The notes under the pieces are model-generated. The model was given only the letters and a program-made list of their open reading frames with translations. It did no database searches and was not told the origin of the DNA. From the NCBI GenBank assembly GCA_965651105.1, contig CBFGRG010000001.1:1-29809 (forward strand): a DNA stretch of 29,809 nucleotides, given 5' to 3'. Position 1 is the first letter of the stretch. Each line of letters starts with the position of its first letter. A program made the translations under genes and the position numbers. The stretch is from an uncultured bacterium. GTDB taxonomy: Bacteria > Chloroflexota > Chloroflexia > Thermomicrobiales > UBA6265. Below, in pieces: positions 340 to 8,278 of the stretch.

Positions 340-552
340 TCAGGCCGCGCCCGTTGTTCCGAAGGTGACTGGCGGCTCGTCAACGATCGTCGGGCGACTA
401 CCCTCGATCCAGCGTCCGAGCCGGACGAGACGGGCACCGAGGGTGTGACGCCAGGGAGGCACGTCGACTCCCGCCGGCAGTGGATGGACGATGGCGCGAA
501 TGTCGTTGCGCTTCGCTTCGATCAGGACGGGGAAATACTCGAACTGGATCAT
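340..552 (-). CDS. small hypothetical protein (70 aa), member 3 of a tandem small-ORF set
   Basis: Track ORF 340..624 trimmed to ATG 552, which has GGAG about 11 nt upstream. MIQFEYFPVLIEAKRNDIRAI... aligns in register with the 855..1067 ORF. Confidence 0.65.
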   Translation of the reverse strand: MIQFEYFPVLIEAKRNDIRAIVHPLPAGVDVPPWRHTLGARLVRLGRWIEGSRPTIVDEPPVTFGTTGAA

Positions 553-640
553 CGCGTTGTGTTCTCCGTGGAAGGCCGGACCTTTCATCGTCCGGACATT
601 TGGTATCGGTGGCACGCTCGTCATCGAGCGCGGTTCGGGA

Positions 641-817
641 TCAGGCTGGGTTCGGCACCGGGCGAGGGCGGCGAATCCGGATCAGCCGGCTCGAGACGGC
701 AATGCCGCGAGCCAGCCGCCGGAAGATACTGATGCGATGTGCATCGGCCCGAATGCTCTCTCGTCGCTCTCGCTCGAGCGCCTCAATGAAGTCCAGCGGT
801 GAGTATGGAGTCAGCAT
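641..817 (-). CDS. small hypothetical protein (58 aa), member 2 of a tandem small-ORF set
   Basis: Below the 60-aa track cutoff. Manual translation: MLTPYSPLDFIEALERERRESIRADAHRISIFRRLARGIAVSSRLIRIRRPRPVPNPA. Fills the gap between the two similar ORFs. RBS spacing (AAGGA, 15 nt) is long. Confidence 0.55.
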   Translation of the reverse strand: MLTPYSPLDFIEALERERRESIRADAHRISIFRRLARGIAVSSRLIRIRRPRPVPNPA

Positions 818-854
818 GGCGTGGACATTCTTTCCTTGGGTTTACTCTGCCTTC

Positions 855-1067
855 TCAGGCACTGGTTTCCTGCGGGATGAGGGTCGGCTCAGCATGGAGC
901 CGCCGGGTGATTCGCTGGGTGAGCCGCAGCAATGCATGCACGGCTCCCCTGGCCGAGGGATATCGCCGCAATGGCCCGAGCTCTGTGCGGACCGTCGGCT
1001 TCCCCAGTGAACGCAACGCGTCCTGCCGCGGCTCGACCAACGCGAACGTGATTTCAGACGGGATCAT
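855..1067 (-). CDS. small hypothetical protein (70 aa), member 1 of a tandem small-ORF set
   Basis: MIPSEITFALVEPRQDALRSL...; GGAG 12 nt upstream; first ORF downstream of the repeat promoter at 1204-1248. Confidence 0.65.
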   Translation of the reverse strand: MIPSEITFALVEPRQDALRSLGKPTVRTELGPLRRYPSARGAVHALLRLTQRITRRLHAEPTLIPQETSA

Positions 1068-1118
1068 CCTTGTCGTCTACTCCGTGTGTCTGGTGACAAT
1101 CCACCATCGAACGTCGCG

Positions 1119-1186
1119 CCAGGCGGAGCCGGCTCCCAGGGCACAGGACGCAGTCGTTGCGCCGGAGAGCCGGCTTTCCAGCCTGG
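1119..1186 (-). other. long imperfect inverted repeat in the predicted 5' leader
   Basis: CCAGGC (1119-1124) pairs with GCCTGG (1181-1186), enclosing AGCCGGCTC/GAGCCGGCT and further paired segments. Folded by eye only. Confidence 0.4.
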
Positions 1187-1203
1187 TTTCAGGACCCGCA
1201 CAC

Positions 1204-1248
1204 ATCCTACGGGCCAGCCATCAAGGGATCGTCAACAGCTACGTCAAC
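1204..1248 (-). promoter_or_regulatory. SARP-type activator site A: three direct repeats plus -10
   Basis: Minus strand reads TTGACG-TAGCTG-TTGACG-ATCCC-TTGATG-GCTGGCCCG-TAGGAT. Same hexamers and spacers as 5181-5225. Confidence 0.7.
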
Positions 1249-1256
1249 ACGGGCAG

Positions 1257-2360
1257 TCAGCTCGCAAGACGGTAGAACCTGAAGAAGTCGTGCTCGATCG
1301 GGAGCACCTCGACCCGCTGGAACCCGGCCTGCTCGGCGTAGTCCCGCAGCGTATCGGCGCGCATCACCGTACCCGTGGCCGCCGAGGGTGTGTCGACCAT
1401 CCCGACCGGAAGACAATGGAGGATGCTGAAGCCGTACATGTACCGCTCGACGTCATCGCCAGGCGCCGCGAATGTCTCCGCGACCTTCTCGTCCACGATC
1501 AGCACCGATCCACCGTCACGAACCAGCCGACGCATCGATCGGAGCACGCCGACCGGGTCGGACATGTCATGAATGCACTCCACCGCCATCGCGAAGTCGT
1601 ACCCGCCGGCCGGATCGGCCTGGCTGGCATCGATGGCATGGAAGGTCACCCGATCGTCCACGCCTTCGGCCCTGGCGTTGACGCGAGCGGCGTCGACGGA
1701 CGCTTCGTCGAGATCGAACCCGTCGACCCGAACCCCGGGAAAGGCGTTGGCAAGCGCAATGCTCGACCAGCCGAGACCGGTGCCGACGTCCGCAATCCGT
1801 GCCGGACGCTGGCTATCCTGCAGCCGCGCGTGGACATCCGGCATCGCGGGGATCCACTCCTGGGCGAGGAGATGCAGGAACTGCGGGTAGGTCGTCCCGG
1901 CCTGGCCTTCGGCGAGATCGGCGCCATAGTCTTCATAAGGAACGCCGCCCCCGGTCCGGTAGGCCTCCAGCAGCGCGGGCAGCGGCGCCACACAGCCGGC
2001 GAAGATCTGGGCGATGGGCGCCATCGCCAGCAGGCTTGTCGGGTCGGCGAGCACGGTCTCGTACCCGTCCGGGAGCTTGTAGCGGCGCGCTGACGGATCA
2101 CCGTCGGCCTCCTCCACGGCAAGTATTCCGGTCACCGCCTGCTGTTCGAGCCACTCGCGAGCGTAGCGCTCGGCCGTACCGGTGCGCTCGGCCAGCGTCT
2201 GGCTTGTCGCCGGGCCGTTCTGGGCGAGATCGCGGTAGTACCCCAGACGGTCTCCGAGATAGACCGAGAAGAGGTCCATCGCCGCGATCACCGAAGAGAA
2301 CAGTCGCTCCGCCAGCACGTCGGAAGACACAGGTGTGGTCGTGGTCGTCGTATTGTCCAT
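1257..2360 (-). CDS. class I SAM-dependent methyltransferase with N-terminal winged-helix dimerisation domain (Rv2258c-like architecture)
   Basis: YLGDRLG..ERYAREWL N-domain; motif I ADVGTGLG; DGFDLD; ECIHDM; RBS AAGGAG. Confidence 0.93.
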   Translation of the reverse strand: MDNTTTTTTPVSSDVLAERLFSSVIAAMDLFSVYLGDRLGYYRDLAQNGPATSQTLAERTGTAERYAREWLEQQAVTGILAVEEADGDPSARRYKLPDGYETVLADPTSLLAMAPIAQIFAGCVAPLPALLEAYRTGGGVPYEDYGADLAEGQAGTTYPQFLHLLAQEWIPAMPDVHARLQDSQRPARIADVGTGLGWSSIALANAFPGVRVDGFDLDEASVDAARVNARAEGVDDRVTFHAIDASQADPAGGYDFAMAVECIHDMSDPVGVLRSMRRLVRDGGSVLIVDEKVAETFAAPGDDVERYMYGFSILHCLPVGMVDTPSAATGTVMRADTLRDYAEQAGFQRVEVLPIEHDFFRFYRLAS

Positions 2361-2432: not shown

Positions 2433-3533
2433 TCAGGCCGTAAGCCGATAGAAGCGCCAGACATCGTTCTCGATCGGCAGGACTTCAATCTCGCGGAACC
2501 CGGCCTCTTCGGCGTATCGCCGGAGAACATCCGGCCGCATGACCGTTCCGGTCGCTGCCGACGGCTCTTCGCTGAGTCCCACGGGGAGGCAATGCAGCAC
2601 GCTCGCCGCGTACATCAATCGTTCAATCGGGTCGCCCGGCGCGATGAATGTCTCCGCGACTCGCTCATCGCCGATCAGCACGGTACCGCCCGCCCCGACC
2701 ATGCGGCGCATCGCGGCGAGCGCGCCAACCGGATTCGCCATGTCATGGATCGTTTCGATCGCGAAGGCGAAATCGTATTCGGCACCAGGCGCCGGGTCCG
2801 CAGCATCACGGACGTGGAAGTGCACGCGGTCGCCTACTCCCGCGCGCTCGGCGTTGGCCCTGGCGGACTCGATCGACGCAGCGTCAAGGTCGAATCCATC
2901 GACCCGCACATGCGGGTAGCCCTGGGCGAGCGCAATCGTCGACCAGCCGGTGCCGCAGCCAATGTCGGCCACGCGCGCGGGCTGTGCGGAGTCCCGCAGG
3001 CGGGCATCGATGTCGGGAAGCGCCGGGATCCACTCCTGCGCGAGGAGGTTGATGTAGAGCACCCGATTCGCCTCGCCCATGCCTTCTCGCAGGTCGTCGC
3101 CGTACGCCTCGAACGGAATTCCGGCACCGGTTCGATAGGCATCCTCCAGCAACGGCAGCGTGGAGATCAAACCGAGAAACTGCCTCGCCAGCGGTGCCAC
3201 GTACGCCAGGTTGTCCCTGTCGGTGAGCGCGACATCGTGACCGGCAGGCAGGGAATAGCGACGGGACTCAGGTTCGCCAGTATCGGTGACGTCCAGGATG
3301 CCGGTGACAGCCTGCTGCTCGAGCCACTCGCGGGTGTAACGCTCCGCCGTGCCGGCGGCCTCGGCCAGCTCGGCGGGCGTTGCCTCGCCCAGGTTCTTGA
3401 GCGCGCGGTAGAAACCGAGGCGATCGCCGAGATAGATGGTGGTGAGGTCTGCGACGTCCAGCGCCGCTCCAAAGACCCGTTCCGCGAGCACCTGGCTGCG
3501 CTCCTCGGCCGATTGGGCTTGTATCGTGATCAT
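2433..3533 (-). CDS. class I SAM-dependent methyltransferase, paralog of 1257..2360
   Basis: YLGDRLG..ERYTREWLEQQAVTGIL; ADIGCGTG; DGFDLD; ETIHDM; C-terminal LHCLPVG..ATGTVMR shared with the neighbour. Confidence 0.93.
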   Translation of the reverse strand: MITIQAQSAEERSQVLAERVFGAALDVADLTTIYLGDRLGFYRALKNLGEATPAELAEAAGTAERYTREWLEQQAVTGILDVTDTGEPESRRYSLPAGHDVALTDRDNLAYVAPLARQFLGLISTLPLLEDAYRTGAGIPFEAYGDDLREGMGEANRVLYINLLAQEWIPALPDIDARLRDSAQPARVADIGCGTGWSTIALAQGYPHVRVDGFDLDAASIESARANAERAGVGDRVHFHVRDAADPAPGAEYDFAFAIETIHDMANPVGALAAMRRMVGAGGTVLIGDERVAETFIAPGDPIERLMYAASVLHCLPVGLSEEPSAATGTVMRPDVLRRYAEEAGFREIEVLPIENDVWRFYRLTA

Positions 3534-3553: not shown

Positions 3554-5002
3554 CTACAGGGTGCGTTGACCTCCGGAATTCGTCGCTCGAGCGGCGACGG
3601 GTTGGATGTTCTGGTTAACGTGGAAGACATTGTCCGGATCGTATCGAGCCTTGATCGCCGCGAGGCGATCGAAGTTGCCACGGTAGGCTGCGCGCAGCCG
3701 TTGCGGGCCTTCCTCCATCATCATGTTGACGTAGGCGCCTCCGGCCGAGAACGGGTGGAGCGCCCGCCAGTAGTCGCGCGCCCACGCGGTGATTCGCTCG
3801 GCGTTGGCCGGATCGGGGTCAACCCCGACAATCACCTTCGCCCACGTCACGTCGCGATAGCTGAAGGCGGTTTCGTCGCGTCCAACCCGGCTCACGGCGC
3901 CATTGATCGGGTAGAGGTGCATGGTCGATTTCGGCGAAGGCAGGGCACTGCCAAACTCGACGTGACGGTCGATCGCCTCGTCCGGAAGGTCGCGCACGAA
4001 GTCGGCTTTCCAGTACCATTGCTCGCCTGGCGGGTATAACGGATCGAAGGCGCTCTGCAGCGCCGGGAATGGCACTTCCTCCGCGCCGTGCAGCGCCGGG
4101 GTGCCAACCCCGAGTGCCGGGGCGATCGCGTCTGCCGCGCGGTCTTCCGGGCCCAGGTAGCACCAGACGACCGCGCACATCGTCTGCCCATGCAGCTCTT
4201 CGGGGAAATCCGGTGCAGGTGGCACCGAGAGGAACGCGAAGAAGCCGCTGAGCTCGTCTGGCGCGTCGACGATGAAGTCGCGATACCAGCGCATGACCTC
4301 CGCCGATTGTTCGATCGGCCAGAGCGTCCGCCCAGCGGTCACCGTATGGACCGGGTGCAATCGGAACAGGAACGAGGTGACGACGCCGAAGTTGCCGCCG
4401 CCACCCCGCAGCGCCCAGAACAGGTCGGGATGCTCGCTCGCGCTCGCCGTGACGAAGCTGCCGTCGGCGAGCACCACGTCGGCGGCCAGCAGGCTGTCGA
4501 TCGTCAGGCCGTATTTGCGGCTCAGATGCCCCACCCCACCGCCCAGCGTGAGCCCGGCAACCCCGGTCGTGGAGATCATGCCGCTCGGGACCGCGAGCCC
4601 GAACGCGTGGGTAGCATGGTCAACCTCGGCCCATGTGCAGCCGGCATCGACTCGCGCGGTCCGGGCCTCCGGATCGACGCGGATCCCCTTCATCAGCGAC
4701 AGGTCGAGCACCACGCCGCCATCGACCGAGCCGAGCCCTGCGCCATTGTGTCCGCCACCGCGAATGGCGAGATCGAAGTGATGCGTTCGGGTCAGGTCGA
4801 CCGTGGCAATGACATCGGCCACGTCGACAGCTCGCACGATGAGCGCGGGGCGCTTGTCGATCATGGCGTTGTAGAGGGCGCGCGCCGGGTCGTATTCCGC
4901 GTCGCCGGGGCGAATCACGTCGCCCCGGATGGCGCCGCCGAACCTCGCCAGAGCGTCGGCGGCTGCCGTAGATTCGGTCCCTTCCGGGTGCAGCAGGGCC
5001 AT
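3554..5002 (-). CDS. FAD-binding oxidoreductase, VAO/PCMH family with C-terminal BBE domain
   Basis: Start moved to ATG 5002 (GGAAAGGAG RBS). RGGGHNGAG covalent-FAD His motif; GVAGLTLGGG; DLFWALRGGGGNFGVVT; RLAAIKARYDPDNVF. Confidence 0.93.
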   Translation of the reverse strand: MALLHPEGTESTAAADALARFGGAIRGDVIRPGDAEYDPARALYNAMIDKRPALIVRAVDVADVIATVDLTRTHHFDLAIRGGGHNGAGLGSVDGGVVLDLSLMKGIRVDPEARTARVDAGCTWAEVDHATHAFGLAVPSGMISTTGVAGLTLGGGVGHLSRKYGLTIDSLLAADVVLADGSFVTASASEHPDLFWALRGGGGNFGVVTSFLFRLHPVHTVTAGRTLWPIEQSAEVMRWYRDFIVDAPDELSGFFAFLSVPPAPDFPEELHGQTMCAVVWCYLGPEDRAADAIAPALGVGTPALHGAEEVPFPALQSAFDPLYPPGEQWYWKADFVRDLPDEAIDRHVEFGSALPSPKSTMHLYPINGAVSRVGRDETAFSYRDVTWAKVIVGVDPDPANAERITAWARDYWRALHPFSAGGAYVNMMMEEGPQRLRAAYRGNFDRLAAIKARYDPDNVFHVNQNIQPVAARATNSGGQRTL

Positions 5003-5180
5003 TGTGGCTCCTTTCCGGCCGGGGTGGCGGTGCTCCGTCCATAGACACTGCCATCCCCGACACCGGACAACTCCGGCAGGTGACCGCAAGGACGCCAGGC
5101 GGTCGTCACCGGAATCGAATTGGTCCTGACGGCCGGCCCTTGAGTTCCGGCTGCCGGACATCGTCTCGTCCTCACAACCG

Positions 5181-5225
5181 AGTATTGGCACCGAGCATCA
5201 ACGTAACGTCAACGCTTACGTCAAT
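5181..5225 (-). promoter_or_regulatory. SARP-type activator site B: three direct repeats plus -10
   Basis: Minus strand reads TTGACG-TAAGCG-TTGACG-TTACG-TTGATG-CTCGGTGCC-AATACT. Lies in the divergent intergenic region next to the SARP gene. Confidence 0.7.
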
Positions 5226-5293: not shown

Positions 5294-8278
5294 GTGGCAC
5301 CATTGAAGCTTTCCCTGCTGGGGCCGCTGCATGTCGAGCGTGACGGCCAACCGATCTCTGGCCCGGTATATGCCAAGGTGCTGGCGCTGCTGGTCTTCCT
5401 TGCGGTCGAGTCGGACCGCCCGCACCAGCGTTCCGCGCTGGCTGCGCTGCTCTGGCCCGACCAGTCGGAGGATCGCGCTCGCCACAGCCTTCGCCAGGCA
5501 CTCAGCACGCTGCGCCGGGCGGTCGACGCCGGGGCGCAGCACCCATCGATAACCGTCACCCGCAACACGGTGACGTTCAATCGCGATGGCGGACACGACG
5601 TGGATGTGATCGAGCTGATGAGCCTGCTGGACGCCTCGGACCGGCACGATCACGACGACGCGGCGACCTGCGCGTCGTGCGCTGACCGGCGCGAGCGCGC
5701 CGTGGCGCTCTACCGGGGCGATCTGGTCGATGGGTTCACCATTCCCGACAGCGACGTGTTCGAGGACTGGGTGCAGGTCTGGCGCCAGCGCTTCCGCGAG
5801 CGGGTGGTGACTGCGCTCGACGACATCTCGACGTGGCATGAACGGATGGGCCGCCGCGACCTGGCGATCTCGGCGGTCCGGCGCCAGCTGGAGCTGGACC
5901 CCTGGCGTGAACCGGGGCATCGCCGCTTGATGGATCTGCTCTGGCAGGACGGCAACCGCGCCGGCGCGCTCGCCCAGTTCGAACGCTGTCGCGACCTCCT
6001 GGATGCCGAGGTCGGAGTCGAGCCCGAGCCGGAGACCATCGCGCTGTACGAGCGGATACGCGACGGAACACCTCACGCCGCCACCACCGGGACCGATTCC
6101 GTCGGCGCGGCGCGGCCGCTCCCCGCCCCGGCCACTCGCCTCGTCGGGCGCACACGCGAGCTGGAGGAAATCACCGACCTGCTCGAGCAACGCGGCTGCA
6201 GGCTGCTGACGCTGGCCGGACCCGGCGGCGTCGGCAAGACACGACTGGCGCTGCACATCGCGCACGAACGCGCCAGGCGTCGCGGCGAAATCGTCGGCGT
6301 GGTCCCGCTCACCCACGTTCACGACGCCGACGGCATCTGCGCGGCGATCGCCGACACCTTTGGGCTATCGGTGCAGCCGTCCCGGCCGATCCTGGCGCAA
6401 ATCGCGGGGTGGCTCCACGGGCGCGACGTCTTCCTGGTCATGGACAACGCCGAACACCTCACCGCCGAGATGGACGTGCTCTCGGACCTGCTGGCGGCCG
6501 AGCCGGGCCTGACCTTGCTCGTGACGACGCGGGAGCGCATTCGGCTCGCCGCGGAGTGGGTCTACGAAGTCCGCGGGATGAGCGTGCCGACAAATCCGGA
6601 TACCGACGCGTTCGAGGGTTACGACGCGGTCGAGCTGTTCATGGAGCGTGTTCGGCAGGTGCGCCCGGGAGCGCCGCTCCGGCACGATGAGCGACCAGAC
6701 GCGATCCGCATCTGCCAGCTCGTTTCGGGCTTCCCACTGGCCCTGGAGCTCGCGGCCGCATGGGCCGCGACCCTGCCGCTCGAGCGCATCGCGAGCGAAA
6801 TCCAGGAAAATCTCGATTTCCTCGCGGCAACCACGCGGGACCTCCCCGATCGCCACGCCAGCCTGCGCGCCGTGTTCTCGTCATCGTGGGAAATGCTCTC
6901 CCCCATCGAGCAGACAGCGTGGCGCCGCCTCTCGGTGTTCGACGATGGCTTCGATCTCGCCGCTGCCAGGGAAGTCACCGGTACGGATCTCGCCACGCTC
7001 GCGAACCTGATCAACAAATCGCTGCTGTCGCGCCTCGACCTCGACCGGTATCTCCTCCACCAGTTGCTGCGACAGTACGGGGACGAACTGCTCCAGCAGA
7101 ACCCGGAGGAGTATCGCGACACCCGGGACCTGCACGCGCGGCACTTTCTCGGCAGGCTCGCGGGGATGGAGGAGGCGCTCACAGGTCGCGACCAGCCGCA
7201 GGCGCTGGAGACGATAGAGGATATGCTCGGCAACCTCCGATCGGCGTGGTCATGGGCGGCGAAAGGCGAGGCGATCGACGAGATGGTCGCGGCGGCGCAC
7301 GCATTCTGGCTCTATCACGCGATCCGCGGCCGGATGGGAGAGGGTGCGGCAACCTTTGGAGAGATGCTCGAAGCGCTCGAACGCCGAGCCTGCGAAGGCG
7401 ATACAGAGAGCTGCGGGCGGACACTGGCCCTTGCCCGGGTGTACACCGGCGGGTTCCGCAGCGGGCTCGGGCGCTACGATGAGGGCATCGAGCTCCTGCG
7501 AGACGGCATCGCGACCCTCCGCGAATGCGGAACCGGCCGGGATCTGGGGCTGGCCCTCAACATGCTCGCCGCCGCGCTGACGATGAAGGGCCGCGATACC
7601 GAGGTCCGTGATTGCCTGCAGGAGAGCCTCGAAGCCTCCGAGCGCGCGGGCGACCGATGGACGACGGCGTTCGCGCTGAACGATCTCGGCATGTTGCTGC
7701 ACAAGCATTTCGGGGATGACGACGCCTCGCGGCACTGCGAACGCAGTCGCACCATCTTCCGGCAGATCGGCGATGCGCGCGGCCAGGCCTTCGCCGCCCA
7801 CAACCTCGGCATCATCGCTTTCGAGCAAGGCCGGTATCGCCGCGCGATGGCGCTTCACCACGAGGCGAAGTCGCTCCGATCGGAGATCAACGACACATGG
7901 GGCGTCGCGACATCGCTGGTGCAAATCGGCGTCGTCTCCCGTGCCACGGGCGCAACCGACGCAGCTCGCCGCGAGCTCACGCGCGCCCTCCGTGTCGCCT
8001 GGGAGAGCTCGATCGTGCCGGTCGTGCTGGAAGCGCTCGTCGAGCTCGCCGGGCTGGATATCGACATGGGCACGGCCGACGACACCGAAGGGACGCTCGC
8101 CGCTCTTGCCGCGCATCCGGTGTTGCCGAGACACATGCGGCCGCGACTGGAGCACCTGATGGCGCTCGCCGGCGTCGAGCCCGCATGGCCGGAGCCCGAT
8201 GCCGAAGACAACCGATGGGCAACTCAGGCGGTGGACCGGCTCGCGCGCCGAGCGCTGGCCGGTGGCGTCACCACCTGA
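5294..8278 (+). CDS. AfsR/SARP-family transcriptional regulator: OmpR-type wHTH + BTAD + NB-ARC/STAND ATPase + TPR repeats
   Basis: LSLLGPLHV..ALLVFLA..LLWPD..SLRQALSTLRR; LELDPWRE..LMDLL..G.RAGALAQFE (BTAD); Walker A GPGGVGKT; Walker B LVMDNAEHL; GFPLALELAA; Ala/Leu-rich TPR C-terminus. Confidence 0.93.
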   Translation: MAPLKLSLLGPLHVERDGQPISGPVYAKVLALLVFLAVESDRPHQRSALAALLWPDQSEDRARHSLRQALSTLRRAVDAGAQHPSITVTRNTVTFNRDGGHDVDVIELMSLLDASDRHDHDDAATCASCADRRERAVALYRGDLVDGFTIPDSDVFEDWVQVWRQRFRERVVTALDDISTWHERMGRRDLAISAVRRQLELDPWREPGHRRLMDLLWQDGNRAGALAQFERCRDLLDAEVGVEPEPETIALYERIRDGTPHAATTGTDSVGAARPLPAPATRLVGRTRELEEITDLLEQRGCRLLTLAGPGGVGKTRLALHIAHERARRRGEIVGVVPLTHVHDADGICAAIADTFGLSVQPSRPILAQIAGWLHGRDVFLVMDNAEHLTAEMDVLSDLLAAEPGLTLLVTTRERIRLAAEWVYEVRGMSVPTNPDTDAFEGYDAVELFMERVRQVRPGAPLRHDERPDAIRICQLVSGFPLALELAAAWAATLPLERIASEIQENLDFLAATTRDLPDRHASLRAVFSSSWEMLSPIEQTAWRRLSVFDDGFDLAAAREVTGTDLATLANLINKSLLSRLDLDRYLLHQLLRQYGDELLQQNPEEYRDTRDLHARHFLGRLAGMEEALTGRDQPQALETIEDMLGNLRSAWSWAAKGEAIDEMVAAAHAFWLYHAIRGRMGEGAATFGEMLEALERRACEGDTESCGRTLALARVYTGGFRSGLGRYDEGIELLRDGIATLRECGTGRDLGLALNMLAAALTMKGRDTEVRDCLQESLEASERAGDRWTTAFALNDLGMLLHKHFGDDDASRHCERSRTIFRQIGDARGQAFAAHNLGIIAFEQGRYRRAMALHHEAKSLRSEINDTWGVATSLVQIGVVSRATGATDAARRELTRALRVAWESSIVPVVLEALVELAGLDIDMGTADDTEGTLAALAAHPVLPRHMRPRLEHLMALAGVEPAWPEPDAEDNRWATQAVDRLARRALAGGVTT

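Follow-up and report, generated by a model that had tools for sequence, protein, structure and literature searches.

In Streptomyces, the regulator AfsR activates afsS through the afs box, and AfsS, which has no DNA-binding domain, binds AfsR and raises the affinity of AfsR for its promoter (PMC10832544). The hallmark of AfsS-like proteins is a sequence of about 12 residues that occurs two to five times within the protein (PMC10832544). At the promoters of SARP targets, direct repeats are spaced by one or two turns of the helix, and 8 bp separate the 3' repeat from the -10 element (PMC10936776). A SARP-STAND regulator with a small-protein target is already known, in other words. What is new at the locus described here is that the small proteins belong to an unrelated, unnamed family, that the host is a member of the Chloroflexota and that the target has been multiplied into a conserved trio, and we therefore consider the arrangement to be a variant of the known design.

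The locus lies in the window, by which we mean the whole 29,809 nucleotide stretch of DNA that was analyzed; it is a whole contig of an 83%-complete, 3.4 Mb metagenome-assembled genome (MAG) of a compost bacterium. The resemblance to AfsR-AfsS has several components. [quoted passage not shown] Other loci of the same small-protein family have the small gene immediately 3' of a STAND gene, just as afsS follows afsR. The differences are equally clear. AfsS has no sequence similarity to the small proteins of the window; direct reading of the three proteins (orfA, orfB and orfC) found no internal repeats, the family consensus being a single helix-loop-helix; and instead of internal repeats the window has three separate paralogous genes. 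In addition, the host belongs to the Chloroflexota rather than the Actinomycetota, the box has three repeats, and partnership with the regulator is something that we can only infer. Judged by their sequences, the window proteins are not AfsS homologs.

The three small minus-strand ORFs reported by the first-pass annotation are present as described: orfA (855-1067, 70 aa), orfB (641-817, 58 aa) and orfC (340-552, 70 aa). They occupy three different reading frames with gaps of 37 and 88 nt between them, and each ATG is preceded, at about 11-12 nt, by GGAG or AAGGA (GGAG at about 12 nt for orfA). A longer, 94-aa reading of orfC from position 624 is possible; we place the start at the ATG at 552, because the orthologs begin at the equivalent Met. 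The middle ORF had been said to be missed by annotation, and in agreement with this orfB appears in the gene calls of only one of ten same-species contigs. On these ten contigs an antisense ORF of 122 aa (+907-1275) is usually called over orfA; this candidate was ruled out as a real gene, its codon score being negative. Small proteins are routinely missed by annotation, and orfB and orfA, the latter hidden beneath a spurious antisense call, are examples of this.

Upstream of the trio, and on the same strand, are two paralogous methyltransferase genes and an oxidase gene. Methyltransferase 1 (MT1; 1257-2360, minus) has an Rv2258c-like winged HTH and a class I SAM methyltransferase domain, and methyltransferase 2 (2433-3533, minus) also has an Rv2258c-like winged HTH. 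The BBE/FAD-linked oxidase (3554-5002, minus) is given here with its start from public gene calls; a GTG at 5191 was considered as an alternative, but it is upstream of the predicted -10 and therefore cannot be the oxidase start. Divergent from these genes is an AfsR-like STAND regulator (5294-8278, plus) comprising a winged-helix DNA-binding domain and BTAD, NB-ARC and TPR domains. On the other side of the trio, beginning 45 nt after orfC, is the gene for a SemiSWEET-like protein with three transmembrane segments (1-294, minus), which is cut by the window edge and encodes 107 aa on full contigs; it matches the NCBIfam model SemiSWEET_2 only weakly (E 9e-4; the cut-off is 80 bits). On same-species contigs that extend past the left window edge there are two more STAND genes, convergent with each other; the first encodes 961 aa with an XRE-type HTH at the N-terminus, and the second 979 aa. 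Together with the SARP-STAND, the locus therefore has as many STAND regulators as small proteins, three of each. The list of neighbors is completed by ThuA and an M20 peptidase, alongside the BBE oxidase, the class I methyltransferases, the three-TM carrier and the STAND regulators.

Just past the stop codon of MT1 and directly ahead of orfA is a SARP-type box, site A (TTGACGTAGCTGTTGACGATCCCTTGATG; 1219-1247, minus), composed of the three direct repeats TTGACG-N6-TTGACG-N5-TTGATG. The box hexamers begin 12 and 11 nt apart, and the third heptamer, TTGATGG, is followed after exactly 8 bp by the -10-like hexamer TAGGAT (1204-1209, minus). A second perfect box (5196-5224, minus) precedes the oxidase operon, where the third heptamer is TTGATGC and the hexamer AATACT again follows after exactly 8 bp. 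Both boxes match the published SARP geometry (PMC10936776). When up to three mismatches were allowed, the window contained two matches to the box pattern, both of them perfect, against 0.01 expected, and the first-pass annotation was thus correct in placing a site directly upstream of the array. Across the whole MAG there are exactly two perfect boxes, those of the oxidase operon and the array, and the next best match has two mismatches. A scan of positions 1-1400 revealed neither a consensus sigma-70 promoter nor an intrinsic terminator; the lack of a sigma-70 consensus is as expected, because the promoter would be activator-dependent.

Comparison with related species showed how far the box of the array extends. 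In the sister species L080, a perfect box is found ahead of that species' own A-B-C array (TTGATGT, 8 bp, TAAAGT), and its 18 central bases are identical to those of site A, while the orfC proteins of the two species are 44% identical. By contrast, neither L034 nor L036 has a separate box before its array: in L036 the only box is that before the BBE gene, with one mismatch, and L034 is without any recognizable copy. The earlier proposal that the array has its own SARP-type promoter consequently stands for the window species, on the geometry of site A and its perfect copy in L080, and does not extend to L034 and L036. Based on this perfect, conserved box of SARP geometry here and in L080, the array is very probably a direct SARP target in both species; in the other species the array just forms the end of the oxidase operon. 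The locus represents a clean test case, with one AfsR-like regulator, two identical boxes genome-wide and a small-protein trio that is one of only two predicted targets.

The first-pass annotation had also described the three proteins as divergent paralogs of one uncharacterized family. Its gapless match of orfA and orfC over their first 21 residues (M1, I2, E5, L10, E12, R/K14, L/I18, R19) is right by direct reading. Pairwise BLASTP among the three proteins produced no alignment at E<=100, however, and the likeness is therefore not significant at the pairwise level. The evidence for paralogy comes from profiles. An HMM of 90 family members, from which orfA and orfB had been left out, was run over every stop-to-stop frame in the whole genome; after the established members, its top matches were orfA (21.4 bits, E 6.5e-4) and orfB (19.3 bits, E 2.9e-3). 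None of 3000 composition-preserving shuffles reached the score of either protein (19.8 for orfA versus a shuffle maximum of 12.0; 16.2 for orfB versus 9.9). Alignment with hhalign to the family alignment A3 gave E-values of 8e-7 for orfA and 3e-7 for orfB. On the strength of the HMM, shuffle and hhalign results the paralogy claim holds, and we regard orfA, orfB and orfC as real, diverged copies of one unnamed family of two-helix proteins of about 70 residues.

Other searches defined the reach of these relationships. OrfB matched the family member P0086 by BLASTP (E 2e-10), and orfC, with E 2.7e-45 to itself, had relatives at E 4e-16 to 4e-10 when 192 genomes of the order were searched in six frames, among them paralogs in the same genome. 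A wider profile was needed for the other two copies, as a profile of ten orfC-like members alone recovered neither orfA (E 5) nor orfB. A word-index search with orfA returned only its own 90% cluster, and a DNA-level search of 40 relatives gave no match to the array.

The family consensus consists of an N-terminal helix, M...(E/D)(Y/F).P..(I/V)E..(R/Q).(D/Y)LR.L, a Pro/Arg linker, a second helix, R.R(L/I)G..(L/I)(V/I)R(L/F)G.W(I/V/L)EG.(R/C)P(E/D), and a variable Pro-rich tail. In its general form the second-helix motif is R-x-R-(L/I)-G-x-x-(L/I)-(V/I)-R-x-G-x-W-x-x-G. In each protein the N-terminal two thirds are kept and the last 10-20 residues vary; the variable tail has no invariant residue. 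OrfC is the canonical member of the trio, with the second-helix motif LG..LVRLGRWIEG intact (LGARLVRLGRWIEG). In orfA and orfB this helix is degenerate and lacks G-x-W, yet it is aligned in frame. OrfA retains the N-terminal helix motif and matches the A-type N-terminus M...(E/D).(T/S)(F/Y)E...RQADLRAL, as seen in P0039 and P0049, and orfB has the B-type N-terminus ML.PYSPLDF.EAL..ERR of P0086 and P0070.

AlphaFold2, run for orfC on an alignment of 79 sequences, predicted helices at residues 4-21 and 33-50 and a loose tail, with moderate confidence (pLDDT 68, pTM 0.31). The family comprises basic proteins whose two amphipathic helices are followed by a loose, proline-rich tail. It has no matching model in Pfam or NCBIfam, with no domain of any kind detected, and a PDB profile search, Foldseek against the AFDB clusters and searches of the ESM Atlas (all clusters and named clusters only) returned nothing informative. 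The proteins contain no enzymatic, DNA-binding, transmembrane or signal sequence. A relationship to the c-di-GMP binding motif of MshEN was also considered. That motif is a tandem of the 24-residue unit RLGxx(L/V/I)(L/V/I)xxG(L/V/I)(L/V/I)xxxxLxxxLxxQ. Only its first 10 positions resemble the family consensus, orfC has T in place of the Arg of the motif, and the profile comparison with the MshE N-terminal domain (5htl) gave E 1.2; the candidate was rejected.

Members of the family are numerous. An exhaustive search of 1.84 billion representatives with the A2 profile (10 sequences) identified 82 matching clusters at E<=1e-3, and 79 of the 82 representatives are 61-102 aa long and matched end to end. 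With the A3 profile, matches at E<=1e-4 were found in 78 of the 192 genomes of the order, about 40%, a count that includes one genome flagged unpublished (G015); nothing else reported here draws on flagged genomes. The MAG itself has about ten members: three on contig C1, one on C426, two on C67, one on C346 and two to three on C228. A typical member is encoded by an ORF of its own, about 60-100 aa long, that follows a larger gene on the same strand and is often present in tandem copies; tandem arrays also occur in G190, G118, G153, G002 and G109. These analyses define a conserved, selected family of about 70 residues, without a Pfam or NCBIfam model, in about 40% of the searched genomes of the order.

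The trio itself is not peculiar to the window. At least six other contigs have an A-B-C trio after BBE oxidase and methyltransferase genes and before a SemiSWEET-like gene, and the trio follows BBE/methyltransferase genes in L034, L036, L026, L041, L052 and L078-L080. In L034 a SARP-STAND is divergent from BBE-MT-MT-A-B-C, and L036 has the order BBE-MT-MT-A-B-B2-SemiSWEET with a convergent STAND. L026 (genome G005) has a methyltransferase gene followed by four small ORFs, and L041 (G190) and L052 (G184) have a methyltransferase gene, three small ORFs and then SemiSWEET. The cassette is also present in the sister species L077-L080. The SemiSWEET-like gene follows the family array in the contigs of the window species, L036, L041, L052, L077/L078 and G009. 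Together, these comparisons point to a conserved trio at the 3' end of a cassette that also comprises genes for a BBE oxidase, for one or two methyltransferases and for a carrier resembling SemiSWEET.

These contigs were also informative about the condition of the three copies. In L034 and L036 all three have the full second-helix motif. The 58-aa form of orfB recurs in L078 and L079, and the degenerate forms of the second helix, including that of orfA, are shared with these sister species, and they are therefore inherited states and not assembly artifacts. We also considered whether the three ORFs were fragments of a single broken gene left in three frames. This was rejected, as each of the ORFs can be aligned in frame over its whole length with separate, complete members of the family, and other species keep the trio.

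Selection on the trio was estimated as dN/dS by the Nei-Gojobori method against the sister species L078 and L079. OrfB, whose 58 codons align without gaps with 58-aa orthologs in both species, gave dN/dS values of 0.23-0.28, and orfC gave 0.24-0.39; for comparison, the SemiSWEET-like gene gave 0.20-0.34. For orfB and orfC the annotated frame had the lowest value and the other frames ranged from 0.8 to 3.3, except for the antisense frame that shares third codon positions, an exception that is the expected effect of that sharing. Per codon, genome-trained log-odds scores of codon usage were 0.32 for orfC, 0.16 for orfB and 0.07 for orfA, compared with 0.28-0.51 for neighboring genes and negative values for antisense ORFs. 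The dN/dS values indicate that orfB and orfC are under purifying selection. OrfA, which is weakly constrained, differed, with a dN/dS of 0.70 against L078 and no frame preference, and it has no counterpart in L079. Purifying selection was accordingly seen in two of the three.

The behavior of orfA raises a separate and partial alternative, in which only orfC, and perhaps orfB, is functional and orfA is a decaying duplicate that is open by chance, so that the locus would hold a pair and a remnant. In keeping with decay, beyond the dN/dS value, the absent frame preference and the absence from L079, orfA scores lowest in codon usage, no longer has the G-x-W motif and is only 34% identical to its L078 ortholog, compared with 71% for orfB and 60% for orfC. 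Two of its three within-species SNPs are non-synonymous (one synonymous and two non-synonymous, versus three and one in orfB; too few for a test), and further protein variants of orfA occur within the species. Against this, the ORF has remained open over about 70 codons with the same "..SA" end in L078 despite a dS near 0.9, an A-type gene is the first in every trio cassette examined, the SARP box lies directly ahead of orfA, and its N-terminal helix still matches the family profile. We think that decay of orfA is possible, although on balance doubtful.

We propose the following for the window species. The divergent AfsR-like SARP-STAND would switch on the trio, and probably the carrier gene too, through the second copy of the regulator's three-repeat box, 8 bp from the -10-like hexamer. 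The small proteins would then act as protein-binding partners in the signaling circuit of the cassette, as AfsS does for AfsR; they may bind a STAND regulator or another signaling protein and tune its output, rather than serve as substrates. OrfB and orfC are the constrained copies, and orfA is a fast-evolving and possibly dispensable one. A protein-binding role suits basic helix-loop-helix modules with a flexible tail, and since AfsS is the closest worked example we rank the reading as AfsS-like partners first. Taken as a whole, the statement that the window has a coding trio of paralogs of a new family, switched on by the SARP-STAND and serving as AfsS-like, non-DNA-binding partners in a regulator circuit, is one that we advance tentatively, at somewhat below an even chance.

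The wider genomic settings of the family bear directly on this proposal. Neighbor classes were assigned from 51 fetched family loci. In at least 6 of the 51 the small gene is directly after a LuxR-type STAND (AAA_16 or NB-ARC, with TPR and GerE); loci with the small gene directly 3' of such a regulator are L038, L074, L061, L062, L065 and L073, and in G003 a LuxR-TPR regulator is two genes upstream. Seven loci have the BBE/MT cassette. In the largest class, 16 loci, DUF2089-HTH, SHOCT-like and toastrack (DUF4097) genes precede the small gene, which is then followed by an MFS_3 transporter. At three loci the small gene follows an isochorismatase, with start and stop overlapping, at another three it follows a WbaP-type sugar transferase, and in the remainder the preceding gene encodes a penicillin-binding protein, a DUF2079 protein or another product. 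Most family loci are without an adjoining STAND, an observation that we counted against the partner reading.

STANDs make up about 1% of the genes in these genomes, with 34 AAA_16 matches in this MAG. STAND genes being this common, their proximity to the small genes within 5 kb is enriched only mildly, about twofold. At about 1% of genes, however, the arrangement directly after a STAND is enriched, although the loci are not independent and perhaps represent four or five separate arrangements. The co-occurrence with BTAD/LuxR STAND regulators that the first-pass annotation proposed as a check was therefore borne out in part: the trio cassette carries a SARP-STAND and at least 6 of the 51 loci are directly after a LuxR-type STAND, but the association is not general, as 16 of the 51 are in DUF2089/toastrack-MFS operons and others follow isochorismatase, BBE oxidase or membrane enzymes. 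The first-pass annotation also saw in the small proteins possible ligands of the TPR domain of this regulator; a predicted complex of residues 560-994 of the SARP-STAND, containing the TPR domain, with orfC received a score of 0.00, a "no answer" that is evidence neither way.

In a more far-reaching version of the proposal, the family would supply the STAND transcription factors (NB-ARC/AAA_16 plus TPR) of the Chloroflexota with cytoplasmic protein ligands or co-factors of a new class. At this locus the paralogs would be matched to the three STANDs (the SARP-STAND and the two convergent XRE-HTH-AAA_16-TPR proteins), with the variable tails deciding which goes with which. Such a layer of feed-forward or feedback control would parallel AfsS while having evolved independently of it. 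We view this version as distinctly unlikely. If the small proteins were partners of STANDs, the AfsR-AfsS principle would reach beyond Streptomyces and there would be a handle on the tuning of bacterial NLR-like transcription factors.

The 16 loci with toastrack genes support a different role, in which the small proteins are membrane-proximal accessory or regulatory subunits whose Arg/Trp-rich amphipathic helices sit at the inner membrane face and modulate the downstream SemiSWEET-like or MFS transporter, or envelope machinery. Ravi et al. 2024 (PMC11237479) propose that toastrack/SHOCT operons are membrane-stress, sub-membrane signaling systems. At the 16 loci the family member is an extra small gene between the toastrack and MFS_3 genes of such operons; no mention of it was found in the passages of that paper that were consulted. 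Like SHOCT, the family protein is bi-helical; no Pfam SHOCT model matches the family, however, and the window cassette has neither a toastrack nor a DUF2089 gene. The next co-directional gene is a transporter at 22 of the 51 loci (MFS_3 in 16 and SemiSWEET-like in 6), other members follow membrane enzymes (the WbaP-type sugar transferase, the penicillin-binding protein and the DUF2079 protein), and in the window the gap between orfC and the carrier gene is short. The small proteins have no transmembrane segment, however, L034 and L079 have the small genes without a SemiSWEET-like gene, and members also follow soluble enzymes (isochorismatase, BBE oxidase) and precede soluble ones (DinB and a TrpB-like PALP enzyme). 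A membrane-accessory role is, in our view, unlikely.

The layout of the cassette also recalls a small biosynthetic cluster, in that a SARP of the pathway type is combined with tailoring-type enzymes, small genes in tandem and a small carrier. The small proteins could accordingly be RiPP-like precursors or substrates under their own SARP activator; the BBE oxidase and the two methyltransferases would then act on the variable C-terminal tails, or on arginines, before export. The division of the proteins into conserved N-terminal two thirds and a variable end agrees with this. On the other hand, the conserved parts are two basic helices and not a typical leader, the tail lacks any invariant residue, and no RiPP maturase, recognition element or leader peptidase was recognizable in the window or the syntenic contigs. 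The family is also found in many operons without tailoring enzymes, including non-biosynthetic ones, and a pore of SemiSWEET size is an unlikely peptide exporter. Based on these points we consider a precursor role very unlikely.

A tentative comparison may also be drawn with the RRNPPA systems (Rap-Phr, PlcR-PapR, AimR-AimP), in which, as here, a TPR regulator adjoins small genes whose products vary most in the C-terminal tail, and a small carrier gene is adjacent. The window proteins differ in being without a signal peptide or known processing and in being folded two-helix proteins rather than short pro-peptides, and the regulators here are STAND NTPases instead of RRNPPA proteins.

Assembled metatranscriptome data provided a last view of the array. 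In three of four runs of one study of compost, contigs covered the array; carried-over DNA is a possible source of such contigs, which are compatible with expression of the array. One of these contigs spans positions 202-1805.

Immediately beyond the left end of the window, the same-species contig L005 encodes two convergent STAND proteins (961 and 979 aa), each with AAA_16 and TPR domains (L005:6723-9608 and L005:9811-12213, both on the minus strand). The N-terminus of the first is an XRE-type HTH. In a sister species (L079) and at a further locus (L036), the array is likewise followed by convergent STAND genes resembling the L005 pair. Based on this recurrence 3' of the array, as many as three STAND regulators belong to the cassette.

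The array itself differs in composition in L079. The 346 nt separating the methyltransferase gene from orfB there (L079:226-571) contain neither an orfA-like ORF nor a SARP box, so that this species seems either to have lost orfA or never to have acquired it.

Members of the orfA-C family were also identified in several other operons. At sixteen loci (e.g., L054:6651-11151), a small family member belongs to a conserved operon that also encodes a DUF2089 protein of Zn-ribbon-HTH-SHOCT architecture, a SHOCT-like protein and a toastrack DUF4097 protein before it and an MFS_3 transporter after it; this operon is spread over several genera of the order. Three genomes (L062, L065 and L073) share a conserved arrangement in which a family member comes after a LuxR-type STAND gene and precedes genes for a TrpB-like PALP enzyme and for a second conserved protein. 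A third arrangement pairs a family member with an isochorismatase-family gene, the stop of which overlaps the family member's start, both in the window's own genome (C67; L030:2768-3561) and in another genome of the order (G004:C150; L028:3287-4146), and this overlap suggests that the two are translationally coupled. A second, weaker family member lies just 3' of the first on C67. Next to it is a divergent gene that, from its N-terminal sequence, encodes a putative HTH-type regulator. Elsewhere in the own genome, two, possibly three, very divergent family members (77 and 78 aa) are in tandem after ABC-transporter-like genes (C228:4922-5482, plus strand).

In the public annotation of most same-species contigs, orfA is replaced by an antisense ORF of 122 aa (window 907-1275, plus strand), whose negative codon-usage score makes it look like a mis-call. 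For the BBE oxidase, the longest ORF begins at a GTG at 5191 (minus strand), upstream of the predicted -10 (5186-5181). Its true start must therefore lie 3' of this, either at the ATG at 5161 or at that at 5002, the latter being the start in public calls.

A box with two mismatches (TTGACG..CTGACG..TTGACG) at C446:27-55 (plus strand) of the own genome, followed 8 bp on by TAATCT, could represent a third SARP target, weaker than the other two. Downstream of it are an ORF of 94 aa and a gene whose product, judged by its N-terminal sequence, looks like a cytochrome P450.
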